64,000 nucleotides of DNA from Strigamia acuminata (taxonomy: Eukaryota): assembly GCA_949358305.1 (NCBI GenBank), contig OX442314.1, positions 23,932,001-23,996,000 of the forward strand, in the 5' to 3' direction. The notes beneath the pieces were generated by a model that worked only from the letters and a program-made list of their open reading frames with translations, was not told the DNA's origin and did not search any database. Shown here one piece after another: positions 42,624-55,238 of this stretch (position 1 is the first letter of the stretch; each line of letters starts with the position of its first letter). The position numbers and the translations under genes were made by a program.

Positions 42624-44948
42624 TTAAACTGTCCTTTTGCGTTTCTGAATCGTGTTTGGTCCTTCCTCATCGGTAATCTTGCGTTTCCTAGACTTTTTTG
42701 ACGCTGTCTCCTCTTCCCGTTTCACTTCTTCATCACGCATCATTCGTTCCTTCTGTTTCCGTCTCATCGCCTCTCTAATATTCTGCAGTTGCTTTTCTGC
42801 ACACTCAGCTTCTTTTCTCTTCCATTCAAGGACCTCTTCTTTTTTCCGTTCTTGCAGCTTTGCATCACACTCAGCTTGCTTTCTGTTCGATTCGATGATC
42901 TTTCGATTTTTCTCTTCATTCTGCGTCTTCATTTTTTCCAACTGGCGCGCACGTGTGACGTAATAAGTCGCGCGAATTTTAACATCTTTACACTTTTGCA
43001 ACATATTTCGTGCCAAATCAAACAGATTCGGATCTCCGTGAACACTCAAATACTGAAAATCTCTCTCGGCAATCCCCAACTCCTTAACAGCTTTAAGCAC
43101 TGTCGACAATTCCGCCTTTTCAGCCTTCATGGCGCCGCCAGCCATTGTTTCCAACACCACTGCCACATTAAAGCGCAACAAATTGTCTTCGGGAGCAATT
43201 CTCCGAGCTTTCAACAAAGTGGATTTGCAATCCACAAAACTGCCACTCTTGAAATACGCTCTGGCCAAGTACAAAAGAACCTGCACCGAAGACGGTTCCA
43301 ACTCCAAACACTGCTTATACAATTGGATGGCTAAATGGAACTGTTTGTACTGGACGTACATATGCGCTAAATTAATTCGCGCATCAGCAAACTCGGCGGT
43401 GGTTTCCCGAACTAAAAGGAACATTTCGCGCGCTTCCTCTAAGAACCCTTTGTACGCTAAGACACACCCAACGCCATTAGTCGCCCAAGCATTGTCGGGA
43501 TCGTTTTTCAAAGCGTGCTGGTACATTTCAAGCGCTCGATCTTGGTATGTTTTAATTTTGTTTTTATCCACTTTCATGTGCAGCATCCCCAACCACACAT
43601 TGCCCAATGCGATTAAAGCATACGAGTCGTTTTTCCCCTTTGGAATTTTCATTAAAATGCGTTCGTATATGCTTTGAGCCGGTCCTATTTCTAGCTTGGC
43701 AAAATGCATGTTTGCGATTAAAATCCACGCTTCTATATTCTCCTGATCGACGTTCAACGCTTCTTTGAAGTGGAAAGACGCGTCGAAAGTGTCGCCACGA
43801 TCTCTGGCCATGCATCCGAGTCGCAGGTAGCAATCGAGATAATTTGGATGGTCACGTAAAACGCTCTGGTAGCAATTCGTAGCTTTGTCGAACTCTCGCA
43901 AGGCTTCGTAAACTCGCGCTAGGTTGTAAGTGGTTGTTACTGAAATCGCATTGAGCGCTGTTTTGCGCTTCGATATTTCCAACGATCCGACGTAGCATTT
44001 TTCTGCAGCTTTGAAATCGCCCAATCGGAATAACAATACGGCGATATTGTTTAATATTTCTGGCTGAACTTCGTCGCGGACATCTTTCTCAATGGCTTTT
44101 CTGTAAGCGTACAATGCCGTGTCAATGTCTTTGTTTTGGGTAAGTTGCGCTAATTCGATCCAAGCTTCTACGTCGTCGGGACGTATTGCGGTGATTTGAT
44201 TTAGACGTTTTATCGCTATTTCGCGTTTCTCTTGATCCGGCGATTTGGCGTACAACGAGGCGAGGATTTTCATCGCTTCGTAATTGTCGGGTTTTGATTT
44301 CAGAACGGTTTCGAAACATTTAGCCGCGTTTTCAAAATCGCCTTTTTGGATGTAGATTTTACCCAATCCGAAAAATGGTAGAACGAACTGCGAAGAAGCT
44401 AACTGAGTCGATTGGTGATAATATTTAAATGCTTGTTCGAAATCCTTTAAAACGTGAAACACTCGTCCCAACTGATAGCAACTTTCGGCTTTGATTGCTT
44501 TGTTTTCGGTTTGCATGGCGCGAAGAGCTAAAACTTGCACGTTTTGATAATCCTTTTGATTAAAGTAATGATTAGCCAAGTGGTTAAGAGTGATTGGATT
44601 CGCTGCATCAATCGCGTAGGCTTTCGATAAGAGTTGGACTCCACAACGAATCGATTCTGGCGTATTTAAATTGATGTACACGACAGATAGTGCTACTAAA
44701 GCCTCCACGCAACGCGGATGGTGGACGAGAGCTTGTTCGAATGCTTGTCGCGCGTTTGAGGGGTCGTTTAGTTTTGCGAAACAATGTCCTACCCCTAGAA
44801 GAACTGCAGCTTTGTGAGAGCCGGAAACGTGGGTTCGTAAAACTGCTTGGTAGAGTCTCAATGCTTGAGCGAAATCGTTTTTACTAAATGCAATGCAAGC
44901 TCTGTTTAAAGTTGACGGCATGGCACGAGTTGCAGCAACTGATTCCAT
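42624..44948 (-). CDS. CTR9: Intronless, terminally truncated CTR9 (PAF1 complex TPR subunit) paralog, 774 aa
   Basis: GVQLLSKAYAID..NP..LNHLANHYF, AESCYQLGR.FH, AFKYYHQSTQ.A...FVLPFFGLG, ISVTTTYNLAR, HPNYLDCYLRLGCMARDRG and NAWATNGVGCVLA; TATAAAA ~40 bp upstream; TATCGATA (DRE) at 45087-45094. Confidence 0.88.
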   Translation of the reverse strand: MESVAATRAMPSTLNRACIAFSKNDFAQALRLYQAVLRTHVSGSHKAAVLLGVGHCFAKLNDPSNARQAFEQALVHHPRCVEALVALSVVYINLNTPESIRCGVQLLSKAYAIDAANPITLNHLANHYFNQKDYQNVQVLALRAMQTENKAIKAESCYQLGRVFHVLKDFEQAFKYYHQSTQLASSQFVLPFFGLGKIYIQKGDFENAAKCFETVLKSKPDNYEAMKILASLYAKSPDQEKREIAIKRLNQITAIRPDDVEAWIELAQLTQNKDIDTALYAYRKAIEKDVRDEVQPEILNNIAVLLFRLGDFKAAEKCYVGSLEISKRKTALNAISVTTTYNLARVYEALREFDKATNCYQSVLRDHPNYLDCYLRLGCMARDRGDTFDASFHFKEALNVDQENIEAWILIANMHFAKLEIGPAQSIYERILMKIPKGKNDSYALIALGNVWLGMLHMKVDKNKIKTYQDRALEMYQHALKNDPDNAWATNGVGCVLAYKGFLEEAREMFLLVRETTAEFADARINLAHMYVQYKQFHLAIQLYKQCLELEPSSVQVLLYLARAYFKSGSFVDCKSTLLKARRIAPEDNLLRFNVAVVLETMAGGAMKAEKAELSTVLKAVKELGIAERDFQYLSVHGDPNLFDLARNMLQKCKDVKIRATYYVTRARQLEKMKTQNEEKNRKIIESNRKQAECDAKLQERKKEEVLEWKRKEAECAEKQLQNIREAMRRKQKERMMRDEEVKREEETASKKSRKRKITDEEGPNTIQKRKRTV

Positions 44949-45586
44949 TTCAATTCGTTTGGCAAATTTTAGCGGCTAGTGGTGACTTTTTATACGGTAG
45001 CTCAGAATAACGTAGACGTTGCTAAGCTCGCGAATTCGAGTTGTGATGAGTTTCTAATCACGTTCCTTCTTTTTATATTAAATGGATATCGATAACGTCA
45101 ACGATACGTAATTCATATAACGTACGGTCTACTTTGCGCAATTTCATGTAACGTTTGGTTTACGTTGCGTAATTTCAGGATGAAATAAGTGAAACCCACT
45201 TGTATCTTTTAGGAAGATTTTAAACAAAACAAACTGAGACGAAAAATTTGAAATATTGCATGATTATGGAAATTGGAAATTGACTCGCACACTTTGCAAT
45301 TTTATTTTCTAAGAATTTTATTTTATTTTTTAGCTTTTTAAATGTTATTTAATAAAAAGAAATTTAAGAACTGAGTTTCTTCTTGGAGTTTTTCCCTGGT
45401 GGTGTCATTCATTTCTGGCTGAATTTGAAACCAATTGTTTAGAGCCGCCATGACTGAATTGCGACAACCCTATATTGTCACATCGGAGAGTAGCAGTTAG
45501 ATTAACTACAGAATGGTATCTAAAAATATAAAGTATTACACCTATAAAATAGTAATGTATAATATTTTGATTATTTTATTCTAGAA

Positions 45587-46122: not shown

Positions 46123-46803
46123 CTTATAAAAATAAATTCAAGTGCTGAGCTCTCTGCATGCCCTTTTAGCCGATACAAAGGCCGATCTTAGACTGGAACA
46201 GTTTGGACAGTAACATTCTGTAATCAAGCGCATTATGCTACAATTAACTGCAGCATCTGCATCCGGTGACGATTATTAAGGAAAATTGTAATAGCGCTTT
46301 TGATATTAAAGTTAGGAGATAGGACAATTTCTTTATCTTTTTATGGTAAATATCACAAGTTTTTCTTGGTTTGTGACACTAGAGAAGCGAGGGACTCGTG
46401 TTTGTTTTTCAGACCTTTGCAATGGAATAACCATAAATTGAATATTTTGCTAAGTTATGACACAAAATATGAATTATATAAAGAGGCAATAAATGTTGTT
46501 TAACTATTGGCTTGTCCAATTAATTTAATATTTACTAGTACTTAAAAGAAAAACCAGGTGGAGGGCTTGACCTCTACTTATGGTCTAGCCCGAGACCTGA
46601 CCCCCAGTCCAATTTTAAGGAACTGAGGAATAAAACAAGTAGTTTCAGAAATAAAACTTTATTTACTGAAAACATCAAGGAGAGGTGACGGATCGACTTT
46701 ATTGGCGATCTGAAAATACAATAAAAAACCATAAACAAATGTTGTTAGGGTGGTCAAGATATCTATCAACCAAAAACATAAAATCCAAATGAGGGTGGGA
46801 AAT

Positions 46804-46904
46804 AACAACATTTATTGCCTCTTTATATAATTCATATTTTGTGTCATAACTTAGCAAAATATTCAATTATATTACAGCATAGGCAATAAATGTTGTTTAA
46901 CTAT
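46804..46904. repeat. DIRS internal complementary region (ICR)
   Basis: Reverse complement of 46436-46500 joined through CAATT to the reverse complement of ~51604-51644; overlaps the YR stop codon. Confidence 0.95.
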
Positions 46905-47872
46905 AGGCTCTTCGTAGCCTCTAAAACAGTAGAAGTAAAATCAGTCGAAATTCTCTCGACTGGATGATTATAAAATTTGAAAAATATCGAGGCAGAGGAC
47001 CAATCTGCCGCTCGAAGGATGTGAGATAAATTAACTCCTTTTGACCAAGCAAAGGAAGTGGCGGCTGCACGGGTAGAATGGGCCGAAAAAATAGCAGTGT
47101 TTACTCCTGCCATGGACAAGGTTTCCTTGATCCACCTGGCAATAGTGGAAGAAGTGACCGGTCCAAAAGGACGTGAGGACGCCAAAAAGAATTGAAGAGA
47201 GGATCCGCGAAAAGCGGCTGAGTGTTTTAAATAAAATTTAATGGCCTCGACCGGACATAATTCCTCGTCCTCGAAACGGGGTAGAACGAAAGGGACTGTA
47301 GAGGAGGATTTTCTCTTTCCTAGGAGAGGAAAAACACAAGAGTTAGCTGAAAAAACTACTTTGGATGATAAGAGTTTGAGATCTGAAGCCCTTCCTGCTA
47401 AGGAAAGGGCCAAGAGTGTGGCGATATGACGATTAATCTCTAACTTGGAGAAGGTAGGAAGTAAAAGAAACCGTGACTTAAGGAAGAGAAGAACCGGGCC
47501 TACATGCCAAATGGAGGAATATTTCGGAATTTGTGGACGCGAATTTGCGATGCCTTTCATGACGCGCCTGATAAGTGGGTGAGAACCTAGATCAATTGAA
47601 GAAATTAAACTGATGGTCTGAGAAATAGCCGAACGATGGGCATTTATTGTGCTAAGCGCAAAATTATCAGTAAAAAGAGAAGAAAGGTAATTTGCCAACT
47701 TTATGGCAGATGGGCGAACAGGGTCAACATTGTTTCGTGTAGACCAGTGGAGCCAAGACTTCCAGTGTCCGTCGTAGATCTTATTTGATGAGGACTGCCA
47801 GGAACACCCCACCAATTTGGAAGCGTTCGTTGAAAGACCTCCGTTTCCGAGGGAACCGATGACAGTTTCCAT
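46901..47872 (-). CDS. DIRS tyrosine recombinase
   Basis: SAM-like N-domain (TINAHRSAIS, HPLIRRVMKG); catalytic R (GRASDL), LCPV, HSTR, ADW and FFKFY. Confidence 0.95.
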   Translation of the reverse strand: METVIGSLGNGGLSTNASKLVGCSWQSSSNKIYDGHWKSWLHWSTRNNVDPVRPSAIKLANYLSSLFTDNFALSTINAHRSAISQTISLISSIDLGSHPLIRRVMKGIANSRPQIPKYSSIWHVGPVLLFLKSRFLLLPTFSKLEINRHIATLLALSLAGRASDLKLLSSKVVFSANSCVFPLLGKRKSSSTVPFVLPRFEDEELCPVEAIKFYLKHSAAFRGSSLQFFLASSRPFGPVTSSTIARWIKETLSMAGVNTAIFSAHSTRAAATSFAWSKGVNLSHILRAADWSSASIFFKFYNHPVERISTDFTSTVLEATKSL

Positions 47873-50157
47873 GCGGCCAGCTGCAGGGATCGCGCTAGGA
47901 GAAGCGGATGGGGTTGTTTCAGCGCATTCGTCAAAAGATTCGGGAGTTGGGGCAACCGTATCGGGGATTCCGTCGATAGGGACCAGAGAAGCTGAAAAAT
48001 AAATCTCGATTTAGTAGAAAGAAAAGAACAAATTTCCTGAATGTGGAATTACCGGAAACCAAGCTTGGCTAGGCCAAATCGGGGTGATCAGAACTATTCG
48101 AGTAGGTGTCGAAGCATTGCGGATTTTTTGAAGGCATTTTGGAACGAGGCAAAAAGGAGGAAAAGCGTAAGAAATTCCTGATCCCCAGTCCTGAACTAAG
48201 GCATCAAAGGCCTGAGCAGCAGGGTCGGGCTTCCAGCTAAAGAAGTTTTCTAATTGCGCATTATGCATTGCCGCGAAAAGGTCTAAATAAAAGGGACCCC
48301 AAATTTGATCAATGGAGTGAAAGACCTTATGATTCAACATCCAGTCACCTGAGTCTACGATCTTACCCCTAGAGGCCGCGTCCGCTTCTATATTGAGGCG
48401 ACCCGGGATGTGCTCCGCTTGAACAGAGATATTCCTTTCCATAGCCCAAGACCAAAGGTCTTGTGCTACGGCAGTAAGGTCTCGGGATCTGGGGCTGCCC
48501 AGATGATTAATGGAGGCAATCGCTGCAGTATTGTCCATTCTAATCTTAACTATACTATCGGATAAATCCTTAGCAAAAGACTTGAGACCCCAAAATGCAG
48601 CTAAAAGTTCAAGAACATTGATATGTTTCTTAACAAGGGGAGAGGGCCAGGAGCCTCCTATACTAACGCCTGAAGAAGTTGCCCCCCATCCTGTTAGGGA
48701 GGCATCGGAATCAAGGCATAAGAGACAAGGTTTAGGAAGAAGAGATCTGCCCTTGCAAAATCTCAAATTTTGTTTCCACCATAAAAGCTCTGACCTAGCT
48801 TCTTCTGTTATAAAACATGTGGATTCATAATTTCCGGTGAAATTACGGGCTTTTAAATGTTGCAGTCCCCGGTAATGTAGGGGCGCAGAGGAAATGGCAA
48901 TTGTTGTGGCGTTAAGTTTGCCGATAATAGAAGACAGTTCTCGTATAGAACAGGTTTCTGATTGAAGCAAGTCTTCGAGGGAGGAAAGAATATTCTGAAC
49001 TCTGTCTGGTGGCAAGGAGACGCTCATAGAAACTGAATCAATTAGAAAGCCTAAAAAGGTAATCGAAGTAGTGGGCTCAAGGATCGATTTTTTCAAATTA
49101 ATGATAAAACCCAGAGCGCGAAAAAGAAGGCAAACAAAATCCCTCTGTCGTGTAAGAAGTTCGTGAGATTTATTTATAAAAAACCAATCGTCTAAATAGA
49201 CTGCTAACCGAACGTAAAGAGATCGAAGGAAAGTTGCTACAGCTCTACACAATTTTGTAAAGTAAAAGGGAGCGGGACCTAAACCAAAGGGAAGCACTCC
49301 TAGTTCATACAGAACACCTTCCCAGAAAAATCTCAAAAATTTTCGAGATTCTGGGTGTATGGCCACCGAAAAATAGGCATCAGATAGATCCAGTTTAAAC
49401 ATAAAAGCGTCTTTCTCCACCAGAGACAAGGCGGTGTGAATATTCTCCATTTTGAAATGGTTGAAAACCAAAAAGGAATTGAGGGGTTTAAGATTAATAA
49501 TAGGCCGAAAACCGCCATCTTTTTTAGAAACTAGAAAAAGAAAACTAATTATTTGATCTTGGCAAGGAAGAACCGAATAAGCGGCCCCTTTAAGGATCAT
49601 GGCCTTAACCTCCTCCCTGATTAGTTCATGTTTAATCTGATCGAAAACTGGTGTACGAAATTCTGATTGAATAGGTGGACTTAAAAATTCCAATTTTATC
49701 CCTCTGACCGTATCAAGAACCCAAGAATCTGAGGTGATAAAGGACCAAGTGTCGTGACAAAGGGGTAAACGTCCAGATGAAAGACAGGCGTCAGGAAAGG
49801 AAAAGTGGCTACACCAAGCCGTTACCGTTTCTAGTGAAGCCGCCACGACCCCTTCCCCGGTTGCTGGGGAAGGGGTTTTTACGAAAGGGCTGTTGCTGCC
49901 CTTTGTTGTAATCCGGGTTACGAAAGCTTCTACTCTGATCTCTGTCGTCCGGTCGTGTGTGGGAATAATCTCTGCGCTGAAAACTCTCGACGGGGCGACT
50001 AAAACCACGGCGGAATCGATTATCGCGACGAGGACCCTTCGCGGGATTTTTACTTCTCGCTCTGTCCACTGATGCGAATTGGTCGGCTTGCTTTTCTGCA
50101 AGGAAAAACAATAAGTTGTAAGACTCTTAAATTTTTTGTATCGAAAATATGGGTTAC
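47701..50157 (-). CDS. DIRS pol: reverse transcriptase, RNase H and methyltransferase-like domain; interrupted by intron 47992-48052
   Basis: KKDGGFRPIINLKPLN, KLDLSDAYFSV, LPFGL, YLDD; SDAS..GWG, HINVLEL, DN, NIEADAASR; DLFA, YAFPPF; WFP|LLWSL...HPL...LQLAAWKLS after splicing. Confidence 0.93.
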
Positions 50158-51396
50158 TGAATCTCTCAAAAAATTGCCCTTGAAAAAGAGTGTCTCCCTC
50201 CGAATTTCGAAAATGCTTCACCATGTCGGACTTCTTCGTACCCAAACCTTGAACGACATTGAAACGTCGTTCGTCGCTAATTGCGTTCATAGCATTTCGA
50301 ACTTGTTGAAAAATGGCTTTGTTGGCGTAAAGCAATTCGTCTTTGTTCATGGGGTCGTTTGTTGACGAACGATCGTAGATTCTTGCCGTAATCGACCCAA
50401 CGCGCGCCATCATGCCGTTTAAGCGACGCAAAAAACGTTCTCGCGGAATGGAAAAGGACGTGTTTCGTGCCCCCACATAGGCCTCCACATCTTCGTCCAT
50501 TTTCTTCTTTTTCAAAAAGGGAACCTGTCGAGTCGGGCACGGAAAATCGGCCTTAAAACTGTTATTTTTGGCCGTCGAAACTGGTTTGCTCAAAATTCGA
50601 ACTATTTCCTTGGCGGACGATTCGTGGAGAAAAGGCGCATCTTCTTCGAGATCATCGGAGTCGTCCGACGATCGGTCGGATTCCTCGTCCTTTCGAGACG
50701 GCGATTTTCGCGATTTGGCGTGCGGTTTGTCTCTTTTCTCGAGTTCTCGTCGGAGACGTATAATTTCACGGTCCTTACGAGACAGTCTTGCGGAAAATTC
50801 TCGCTCATCGTCTGACGAGCTAGAGCGTGACGAACGGTCGGAATCATACTCTGAAACATCTGACTACAACCAGTCAGTAACAAGAGTGAGAATTTTATCT
50901 ACAATTCCGCATGAGAATTACTTACTTGATTTTCAGACTGAAATGTGCCCCACTCGTCTCTACGAGATCGAGACATTTTTGGCAATTCGGTAGACCCCTC
51001 CCGCTGAAGAGGGGCCCCACCTGTCTGATTCTGCGAGAAAGCCATAAAGATGAGCTTCTCGATGGCCTGGGAAGAAAGTCCCAAGTCGGGCGCCTGACTA
51101 TTCGCGACTTGCGAGGCGGTAAAGTCGGGCCCTCTCGGATCCCGTACATCATCGTTTCCAAAAGATTCGTCAAGGCGTTCTATCGTTTCATCTGATGGTG
51201 TGGGAACGATGGAACCATCTAATAGGATCCTCGATTGGGACGAGGAAGGCGGCGCGATGGGCTCGTGGTGAGTTTCAACACGCGTGGTGGTGGTGATAGG
51301 CTTAGTGGTGTTGGTGCGACCACGCGGTGGTCGTGCTCTTTTGGAGCTTAAAGAGTCATCTGCTGTCTTCTTACCTCTAACTTTAGTAGGGCTCAT
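49809..51396 (-). CDS. DIRS gag-like ORF in three exons (51396-50926, 50863-50158, 50095-49809), 487 aa
   Basis: Two 62-nt GT-AG introns; the spliced frame is open and ends in an RG-rich tail (RGRGRGGFTRNGNGLV*). Confidence 0.8.
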
Positions 51397-51712
51397 CGTA
51401 AAAGGTAGTCAAAGTGCAAAAAAGCGATATAAAACTAAAAAATAGCCAAAATTTTCTTGAACGCGAAAAATCACGTGTGGAGAACTTGGCTAGTAAAATT
51501 GGACTGGGGGTCAGGTCTCGGGCTAGACCATAAGTAGAGGTCAAGCCCTCCACCTGGTTTTTCTTTTAAGTACTAGTAAATATTAAATTAATTGGACAAG
51601 CCAATAGTTAAACAACATTTATTGCCTATGCTGTAATATAATTGTATAATGCACATTTAAATCTTTAAAGATGTTGATTTTGACATACACAAGATTTATG
51701 GTATGCTGCCGA

Positions 51713-53195
51713 AATTAAATACCGGGAGATTAAATGACAACTGTGTTACATTGATCGATTTGTGACAACTTATTTTATTTAGAATCAAAAGACACTTTAT
51801 GTAGTCAAATGGTGCGCTAATCCATTAATGAGGCTCGAAAAGATGATCCTTCATCCAACAAAACCACAGTATACTGTGAACAAAACGTATCTTAATGTCT
51901 TTTTGACTGCGGGGATATGATGTTGGCACGTATTTGTGGAACTGTTTGGAAAGATTGTGGCAAGAATTGGAGGTTTTTATTCGGAATGCGAGATGCAACT
52001 GTGAAGATAGTTTGGCTCTGATGGATGTAAGACACATGTTTTGGCAACATGCAGCGAAACGTGCCTTGCTGTGTATAATTTGATGACAAAGCACATTTGT
52101 AGTGACCATAAGTAGGATCAGCGAGAAGAACAAACAACATTCAAACGATGTCGGGGTTACGAATATAAACAACATTTAAATGCGCGACGTCGCGCATTTC
52201 AATAGTGGTGACATTCTACACGCGAACGCACGCGTCGCGTGTATGAATATCGCGCGCAATATGGATCACCAATTAATGGATGACAGATGAAGATGTCAGA
52301 AGTTTTTGTTGTAATAGATTTACAGGCGCCAATGTTGCCATTGACCTCAAGAGAAATTAGGGACACCATGTTGAGGACAATGCGGGAGGAGGAATGGAAA
52401 CACAAGAAGTTACTGACCTGTACGACCACCAATGAGAGACACTTTACTAATCCTCAGCCTGTATAAAGACTCACTTTTTAACGAATTAAAACACTTGTCA
52501 ACTTTTTCACTGTCAAACGTGTGTTCTCATTTCTTGAATATACAACATTTGTGTGTTTAAACAAGTTCAATTACTGGCTTTTAATGTGGTGCATAGCGTA
52601 ATTGCAAATTTGGTTTATTAGATTTAACATTTAAAATCTTATTCAGTTTTTAATTCGTGTTAGAACTCTGAAGGATTACGATTTGTTAAAGTGCAAGGGC
52701 GTCTGAGAATACTGGATAATTTTTTTTCCTTATTTATGTGTGAAATTTGAAATGAACGATTTCTTCGGAAGTTTACACGATTTCTAAAAGACTCTCCTTA
52801 ACCAATTTTATTTTTTCTCTTCTATTTAAAAGTAAAAATTTCTGACTTGATGGTTTATATACCGTACTGCAGAAATTGTGTTTATTAACTCACCTAAAGT
52901 ATCTACATAGAAATGCACTTGCAAAGATTGCAAGTGCAACTATAAATATTTTTTTAAAATGTTTTCATTCACTCTAATCAATATATCTCAAACTTCTTGT
53001 ACTGAAATTTAACTATTTAATTAACGTAGTACAAAAAAAAATTCATATAAGTTTTGTTGAATGAAGGATCATCCTTTCGAGCCTCATTAATGGATTAGCG
53101 CACCATTTGACTACATAAATGATTCTAAATAAAATAAGTTGTCACAAATCGATCAATGCGTACACACTAGTCATTTACTCTCCCGATATTTAATT
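51713..53195. mobile_element. Foldback element with ~150-bp inverted arms
   Basis: 51713-51864 is the reverse complement of 53051-53195 with few differences; no TSD or transposase ORF recognised. Confidence 0.7.
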
Positions 53196-53566: not shown

Positions 53567-53912
53567 AATTCCCGGACATTTTTCCTTCTTTGGCCACGCG
53601 GCCAAGAATGATTAAAAACGGCGATTCATCAATCAACGCAGTTACCACGTTCCGCGAAGGAGAATCGATCGCCAAAACGACGTTTTCACGTGCGCATTTC
53701 GAACAGGATTTTCTCGACGAATGCTGTTAAACCATCACGTGGATCGGGATTCCAAATTGTGAAATCCAACGAGAAGAATTAGTGCTCAACTGTAAGTTCC
53801 CTTGCTTTTTAGTCTTACGTTATTGTTACTTTTTAAATAATGCATCATTTCCTTCGTCTCTCAATCATGTCTAGGACATACGTCACGGTGAATAATCGCC
53901 ACAGTTCTCAAG

Positions 53913-55238
53913 ATGCCGCGCAGCAAATCAGCATCGAGACTGGAACAATTGTGTTTTGAAATAGTTTGCACCAATGTTGATAGATTAGAAACACAACTAG
54001 TGAATCTACCTTCTATCTTTATGTCGCGCGTGTATCAACGTATAGATCCGCAATTTTACCGGGAAGATAGACGCATATCTTCAAAGGCTTTTGTTCGCCC
54101 TGGCACCAAGTCGATTCATCATCCTGATATGTTTCATTTGCCCATGTATCCTTCTCTATTAGATAGAGTAGGACGACTTGGTGGAAACCTTTTACATTTA
54201 GACCTGGCCAGTAAGACTGATGTAAAAATACCACCTGAATACATGGTCAAACTACTGGGGCAATTGCCACAACTTCAATGGTTTCTTTTTGGAGGTTATA
54301 CGGAAGAATGCACTGAAGAAGTTATCGTTGCAATTGGTGAAAATTGTCTACAATTGCGACATCTAGAGTTAATGAACCGCAAAAAGGTTACGGATGATGT
54401 GCTTTATCATTTAAGAAATTGCAAAAAATTGGAGCATTTTGATGTCTCGTACACTAGCGTCACGTTGCAGGGATGTCTTTTTATTTTCAATCAACTGCCT
54501 CTTTTGAGAAGGTTTGTACATAATTGGTGGGAAATATTTTTTAATCAGTTAAAACAACAGTTCGTGTCGGAGGAAAAGGTGCGCACTTATTCCATCGAAA
54601 CAACTGGCTTTCAAGCAAGTATAAAAAATATTGAAGATTTCATCACTGTGACCACCATTTTCCCCAACTTATCTCGCCTAAAGGTGGATGCATCGGTAGC
54701 ATTGACTACTTTAGATTTGAATATTGTCTTGGCACGGGCACAACGATTGATCAGCTTACAACTCTCTCATTTTAAATTAGTTGATCTTAAACTTGTTGAT
54801 TATTATTGCCCATTGTTACAAATATTACATTTGGATGCTTGCACTATTTTGGACACTGCTGCACATGATTTAGCTCCGCAAAATTTGTTCAGAAACCTAC
54901 GTTTAGTAGGCATACATGCGGATGAATATGGTTTTACTGAATCACAGATGTTAGTCTTATTAACTCAGAATTTAGAATATTTATCTATTAGAAATTGTCA
55001 AACACTCACTGACAAGTTTATTTTAAAACTAGGTGAATTGTATGCAGTTAAAGGTTTGGCATTTTGTTCATGCCCCTCAATTAATCAAAGCATGATAATC
55101 AAGTTAGTAGAAATGAGAAATCCTATGGAGCGTTTAATAATACGACATTGTTTGAATATAGATTTGTCGGTTTCAGAAGAAATTGCCACTTATGTTAAAT
55201 CTAAGAACTTGAGTTTGGAACTATATTGGCGCCTATAA
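53913..55238 (+). CDS. LRR protein (FBXL/AMN1-like repeats) with an N-terminal BC-box-like motif; single coding exon
   Basis: 441-aa ORF; SRLEQLCFEIV N-terminal motif; LRRs such as IGENCLQLRHLEL...KVTD, CKKLEHFDVSYTSVT and LEYLSIRNCQTLTD; candidate 5'UTR intron 53792-53874. Confidence 0.75.
   Translation: MPRSKSASRLEQLCFEIVCTNVDRLETQLVNLPSIFMSRVYQRIDPQFYREDRRISSKAFVRPGTKSIHHPDMFHLPMYPSLLDRVGRLGGNLLHLDLASKTDVKIPPEYMVKLLGQLPQLQWFLFGGYTEECTEEVIVAIGENCLQLRHLELMNRKKVTDDVLYHLRNCKKLEHFDVSYTSVTLQGCLFIFNQLPLLRRFVHNWWEIFFNQLKQQFVSEEKVRTYSIETTGFQASIKNIEDFITVTTIFPNLSRLKVDASVALTTLDLNIVLARAQRLISLQLSHFKLVDLKLVDYYCPLLQILHLDACTILDTAAHDLAPQNLFRNLRLVGIHADEYGFTESQMLVLLTQNLEYLSIRNCQTLTDKFILKLGELYAVKGLAFCSCPSINQSMIIKLVEMRNPMERLIIRHCLNIDLSVSEEIATYVKSKNLSLELYWRL

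Follow-up and report, generated by a model that had tools for sequence, protein, structure and literature searches.

In the present study, we found that the window, that is, the whole 64,000-nt stretch of DNA that was analysed, contains a complete, intact, multi-copy DIRS1-like tyrosine-recombinase (YR) retrotransposon of 5.2 kb on the minus strand, and that its recombinase is probably produced by some splice that skips pol. The favoured form of this splice would join position 49826 in gag to position 47991 and yield a Gag-YR protein of 845 aa, a prediction to which we give slightly less than an even chance. The general mechanism was fairly well supported across DIRS1-like families, and in this element 49826>47991 is a plausible candidate for the precise junction. 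The anatomy, the reading frames and the comparative patterns were observed directly; all splicing events and the choice of donor are what we infer from sequence. The coordinates of the features are given in Table 1.

Table 1. Features of the DIRS1-like element, with predicted introns and exons, and the evidence or remark attached to each.
Feature	Position	Strand	Evidence or remark
Whole DIRS1-like YR retrotransposon	46436..51640	-	Empty-site contig, depth, repeats
Left inverted terminal repeat	51494..51640	-	134-nt arm 51494-51627, 100% complementary to 46484-46617
gag exon 1	50926..51396	-	From ATG 51396; contains phase-1 donor GAG/GTAAGA at 51375
Predicted intron 1, 62 nt, GT-AG, phase 0	50864..50925	-	Its removal makes exon 1 and the long ORF one continuous frame
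gag exon 2, conserved Gag core, RR...LF motif	50158..50863	-	Alignment to Gag sequences from 20 relatives
Predicted intron 2, 62 nt, phase 1	50096..50157	-	Reading frames; basic-tail layout as in relatives
gag exon 3, basic RG-rich tail, ends TAG	49809..50095	-	Candidate donor ACG/GTAACG at 49826/49825
pol: RT, RNase H, Dam-like methyltransferase	48053..49808	-	Pfam RVT_1 E=1.7e-15, Dam E=2.8e-9; motifs
Proposed pol-skipping intron, 1834 nt, inferred	47992..49825	-	In frame; comparative support
Predicted intron 3, 61 nt, phase 0 in pol	47992..48052	-	Acceptor proposed to be shared with the pol-skipping splice
Pol C-terminal exon, 96 aa, overlaps YR frame	47701..47991	-	Frames; homolog comparison
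YR frame	46901..47991	-	39-codon leader, second phase-1 AG 47880, ATG 47872, recombinase core
Internal complementary region (ICR)	46804..46909	-	37-nt exact match to left terminus, 65-nt exact match to right terminus
Right inverted terminal repeat and right extension	46436..46617	-	Repeat comparison

The copy number and insertion of the element were assessed with contigs from two sequencing runs of the same study, both of which behaved as DNA and may be the source of the window. Because the contig depth within the element was about 10x that of the flank, and an empty-site contig joined 46435 to 51640 in both runs at flank depth, we concluded that the element is multi-copy and that its insertion is polymorphic or recent, and probably recent. 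At the empty-site join, five letters fit either side, so that a target-site duplication was absent and only short junction homology was found, as is typical of DIRS1-like elements; AATT was present both at the junction of the ICR and at the element's right end. The inverted terminal repeats (ITRs) and an ICR complementary to both termini were likewise of the DIRS1-like type. The pol gene combined RT and Dam domains with the motifs DSDAS, ELLA, DNT and ADAASR, which we take to be RNase H-type motifs. The YR protein matched Pfam Phage_integrase (PF00589) above the cutoff (E=1e-6) and carried the motif residues R161, H265-x-x-R268, W291 and Y301, indicating a tyrosine recombinase and not a DDE integrase. 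The Gag-like ORF1 was aligned with ORF1 of 20 related loci; gag exon 1 and the gag tail gave no match in the Pfam search, and Gag exon 2 matched only eukaryotic clusters in the Atlas, at no more than 0.90. An Ngaro or PAT identity was rejected, as the termini are inverted and not split direct repeats, and a Dam domain is present (Ngaro elements lack the methyltransferase).

Several other features were observed in the window. Beside the element, at 51749-53158, inverted repeats (69 nt at 97%; 39 nt at 100%) surround about 1.2 kb without a long ORF, which is likely a non-autonomous DNA transposon with few copies as judged by depth. An uninterrupted 783-codon TPR-repeat ORF at 42624-44975 (-), presumably resembling CTR9, may be a retrocopy. 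At 53892-55238 (+), an uninterrupted 448-codon leucine-rich-repeat ORF gave a weak LRR_4 match. Within the element itself, an extra ATG lies at 51531 (-) in the left repeat, 135 nt 5' of the gag ATG.

Three short introns of 61-62 nt, each GT-AG and each with a GTAA start, were predicted in gag and pol, and these predictions are well supported. The alignment of divergent copies breaks over 50881-50948, the region of intron 1, and also across intron 3, where one divergent copy keeps TTTCAG at the acceptor while the intron is otherwise different. The contigs of the two DNA runs listed no joint for any of the introns or for 49826>47991, which counts neither for nor against splicing, as such contigs record presence only. 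Once introns 1 and 2 are out, Gag measures 487 aa and, like the Gag of 20 relatives, carries a basic tail behind its LF motif. The pol frame runs through intron 2 without a stop, and when this intron is kept and intron 3 is removed, a 1190-aa Gag-Pol results; retention of intron 2 would stand in for the frameshift that relatives seem to use. With intron 3 out, 104 aa separate the W..Q.W motif from the Pol end, compared with 94-110 aa in 29 of the 32 homologs listed. Since this removal restores a homolog-like C-terminus, the 47991 acceptor appears to be needed for the conserved Pol tail. A short splice from 49826 to about 49728 was considered as another source of Gag-Pol and was rejected, as it would, on reading the sequence, delete the conserved GRL..W start of Pol.

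The YR frame of the window is closed across pol, and some route of expression is therefore required. A preliminary description of this DNA had proposed that a phase-1 donor in gag is spliced to the intron-3 acceptor, and its geometry was confirmed. The acceptor TTTTCAG/C lies at 47992/47991. Between it and the ATG at 47872, 39 codons of the YR frame are free of stops; counted from the upstream stop, which is located inside intron 3, the open stretch is 46 codons. This frame requires a phase-1 donor; TCA/GTAACC (50158) and ACG/GTAACG (49826) each supply that phase once gag is read in its spliced frame, and their joins to 47991 give 755 aa and the stated 845-aa Gag-YR, respectively. The assertion that gag holds only these two phase-1 donors was incorrect, since the gag exons contain 71 GT sites, of which 33 are in phase 1. 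Seven phase-1 sites have a GTAA core (51375, 50779, 50158, 50054, 49922, 49883 and 49826). A second phase-1 acceptor was found at 47880, giving 808 aa with donor 49826, and YR is in frame for all seven GTAA donors with either acceptor. Because the gag tail and YR share one frame relative to pol, any cut that is phase 0 in pol and runs to the intron-3 acceptor joins them, and 47991 could in this way serve both Pol and YR.

The open frame and the donor phase, on which the proposal had been built, proved to be near chance, and the conclusion itself drew separate, partial support from 53 families of relatives and one pol-less Gag-YR contig of a Daphnia-type family. When the overlapping Pol protein was held fixed in synonymous recodings, an open YR leader lay within what chance allows (P = 0.19), and RG/K-rich Gag often contains GT sites in phase 1. 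The expectation that the upstream YR frame would stay open in related copies held in two divergent copies, both stop-free, but it did not extend to constraint on the YR frame: 8 of 10 and 10 of 11 YR-frame leader codon changes were non-synonymous, and about 81% of random copies would likewise keep the leader stop-free. These results indicated that the window alone argues weakly for the 49826>47991 Gag-YR.

A leader without YR-frame constraint, open at chance level, would also be expected if a free 323-aa YR were translated from its own ATG at 47872, by a subgenomic RNA or internal promoter or by re-initiation, with leader and donor as coding by-products. The ATG is located exactly at the start of the conserved core. 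However, it arises as a by-product of Ala-Trp in Pol (GCA TGG), and Met was found there in only about 6 of 49 related families, as judged by eye. The ATG has a pyrimidine at -3, lies 169 nt before the Pol stop and is preceded by 47 ATGs; scanning to it is implausible because of these upstream ATGs and the lack of a slippery heptamer in the overlap, and a separate RNA would be needed. In addition, 13 of the 32 short-frame families listed have no in-frame YR ATG at all. We consider this free recombinase unlikely.

The evidence for a pol-skipping splice came mainly from relatives. Ninety-seven loci were fetched from the Pol alignment (32-46% identity); 69 of them had a junction and YR and represented 53 families, and the 28 loci without a junction or YR were left out. 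The relatives showed three layouts: a single Gag-linker-YR ORF (1313-1427 aa), a YR frame that follows the gag stop and stays open across pol, and a short YR frame. Donors scoring at least 3 were counted in a gag/pol band 135-15 nt before the conserved Pol start, both the band and the classes being defined after inspection of the data. Such donors were found in 31 of 39 short-YR-frame families versus 3 of 14 families open across pol (Fisher p=2e-4; the families are related and not independent). With intact copies only, the counts were 15/17 and 3/12. The largest short-frame clade had a band donor of at least 3 in 17 of its 18 families, versus 21 of 234 control windows in pol. In the same clade, the YR frame opens mostly 68-95 codons upstream, at or just before CCTTTYAG, which encodes PPFS in Pol, and 8 of the 18 families lack an in-frame ATG for YR. 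The PPFS Ser codon is AGY in 17/17 clade families having Ser, versus 184/676 (27%) of other Pol serines, and Ser at this position is TCN in 5/5 long-frame families. In L025, L028, L039, L044, L075, L080 and others, the AGY codon makes the CCTTTYAG acceptor where YR opens, and in several loci of the clade the acceptor AG itself belongs to the upstream stop.

The relatives are distant from the element under study. The closest one found had at most 47% Pol identity, so the comparative evidence applies by analogy, and in a quick tree the element was placed on a long branch, in no supported clade. The donor phase tracks the pol frame in most relatives, with a match to the top acceptor in 11 of 17; in the window, it is the gag frame that has to be followed. 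Conserved donors and acceptors of matching phase were observed in distant clades, and one divergent copy keeps the acceptor of the window element; no close relative that covers donor 49826 was found. Scans of viral contigs did not find relatives. DIRS elements were also seen within bacterial and archaeal MAG contigs (L081-L097), most likely as eukaryotic contamination.

Joined products were then sought with a Gag-plus-YR profile. Both domains without pol were observed in 35 of 150 matches, comprising 12 long continuous ORFs and 23 short ones. The 12 continuous Gag-linker-YR ORFs indicated that Gag-YR is a natural product. For the short proteins, the source was looked up in 17 of 23 cases; 16 of these 17 were gene models with scattered junctions and were given no evidential weight. 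The remaining one, P0295, lies on a Logan contig of assembled reads (2289 nt) and is a pol-less Gag-YR ORF of 633 aa. It shares one common pol-less junction with the RefSeq protein XP_032787081.2 of Daphnia magna (P0414), in which the end of the Gag tail meets the YR frame some 60 codons ahead of the core, and both proteins keep the whole basic Gag tail. P0295 fits a spliced RNA, and it could be a DNA deletion derivative. XP_032787081.2 carries the source name 'serine/arginine repetitive matrix protein 2' and is probably a mis-named transposon product.

Donor and acceptor strengths, in the element as in its relatives, were compared using approximate scoring matrices of our own. Donor 49826, five codons 5' of the gag stop and at -78, was the best in the homologous gag/pol band, with its score of 0.9 versus at least 3 in most relatives. 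It outscored the element's own predicted intron-2 donor (-3.8), and 3 of 14 control windows in the element's own pol, the intron-3 donor among them, scored as high. A GAG acceptor at 48004 (phase 0) scored -0.6. The best of the 231 GT sites in the element was the phase-1 donor GAG/GTAAGA at 51375/51374 (score 6.4), 22 nt past the gag ATG and in frame with AGs at 50859, 50850, 50095, 47991 and 47880. Its join to 47991 gives a 370-aa YR with a 7-residue leader, a nearly free recombinase. The pol-skipping splice could start from another phase-1 donor, namely 51375, 50158, 49883, 49922 or 50054; 50158 is already the predicted intron-2 donor (its product lacks the basic tail), and the four GTAA sites of the gag tail are all phase 1. 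We regard such a start as unlikely, slightly more so than the free recombinase. A strong donor just past the gag ATG does not recur in relatives, as the gag/pol junction band does, and AGA GGT AAG at 51375 merely codes RGK in the basic N-terminus. The basic tail retained whole in P0295 and XP_032787081.2 also argues against these other donors. Finally, Gag-Pol-YR could arise if ribosomes shifted by -1 within the Pol C-terminal exon, which is very improbable: YR does sit in the -1 frame of Pol, and in the largest short-frame clade a -1 slippery heptamer occurs at the gag/pol overlap in 13 of the 15 families whose gag is an ORF of its own (so that the product there would be Gag, a short leader and YR), but an X XXY YYZ heptamer is absent from 47991-47850 and the shift would remove the conserved Pol tail.

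According to the favoured pol-skipping splice, four RNAs would arise from a single promoter, located in the left repeat. Removal of introns 1 and 2 would produce the 487-aa Gag, and removal of introns 1 and 3 with intron 2 kept would produce the 1190-aa Gag-Pol. In the third RNA, introns 1 and 2 and the long intron from 49826 to the intron-3 acceptor would be removed, taking out RT, RNase H and methyltransferase and leaving the 845-aa Gag-YR. The unspliced RNA would serve as the template for new copies. The acceptor at 47991 would then be dual-frame, leading into Pol and into YR in different frames, with 47880 as a possible alternative. More broadly, the chances seem to us evenly balanced that DIRS recombinases are generally made as Gag-YR, from a long Gag-linker-YR frame or, where that frame is closed, by a pol-skipping splice; in this element the splice would use a dual-frame acceptor that also belongs to a pol intron, and intron retention would replace the frameshift for Gag-Pol.

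If this is true, the integration enzyme would travel fused to Gag, YR annotations would miss the true N-terminus, and DIRS elements would have to balance spliced and unspliced RNA, much like retroviruses. A conserved pol-skipping splice also makes the question of YR expression checkable by one junction search in existing RNA data. The translation of the internal, often start-less DIRS YR ORF is a topic unaddressed in the literature passages. Our literature search, based on passages, gave no account of DIRS elements that express YR through splicing; reviews, Repbase reports and supplements may mention introns or splicing. Passages of PMC7192593, PMC6681497, PMC3266345, PMC5633606, PMC8547959, PMC3783388, PMC4157794, PMC9341512, PMC3950715, PMC5718144 and bioRxiv 10.64898/2026.05.21.726589 describe overlapping or frameshifted ORFs only. 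The element is of a known kind, with a likely undescribed mode of recombinase expression.

In the passages of PMC3266345, DIRS1-like elements resemble the window element in having gag, pol (RT-RH-MT) and YR ORFs, a pol/YR overlap, ITRs and an ICR, a length of about 5.2 kb and insertion without clear duplication. The window element differs from them in its three short predicted introns and its short overlap. Piednoel et al. 2011 reported long ORF overlaps in half of 28 elements; a word search of the available text returned neither 'intron' nor 'splic', and that text gives no route of YR expression (PMC3266345). Dictyostelium DIRS-1 has the same order of parts and the same repeats, and it is described in the passages of PMC3950715, PMC7192593 and PMC5633606 as having a single 4.5-kb mRNA with three overlapping ORFs, splicing being mentioned there only for a reporter intron. 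XP_032787081.2 and P0295 are like the predicted product of the window in that Gag with its basic tail is joined to YR inside the Pol C-terminal overlap, with pol absent. The Daphnia magna product, known from protein sequence, differs in its junction, which lies about 60 codons before the YR core versus 39 in the window, and the loci closest to it have gag and pol in one ORF. In retroviral and errantiviral env, a 3' ORF is likewise reached by a pol-removing splice, as is predicted in the window. Unlike the window prediction, env splicing supplies a short leader and no whole Gag fusion, and env is not an integration enzyme. Plant Ty1/Copia elements, according to passages of PMC5580714, use alternative splicing to set protein output while an unspliced genome is kept, as proposed for the window element. 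Copia splicing yields Gag alone, whereas the splice predicted in the window would deliver the integration enzyme.
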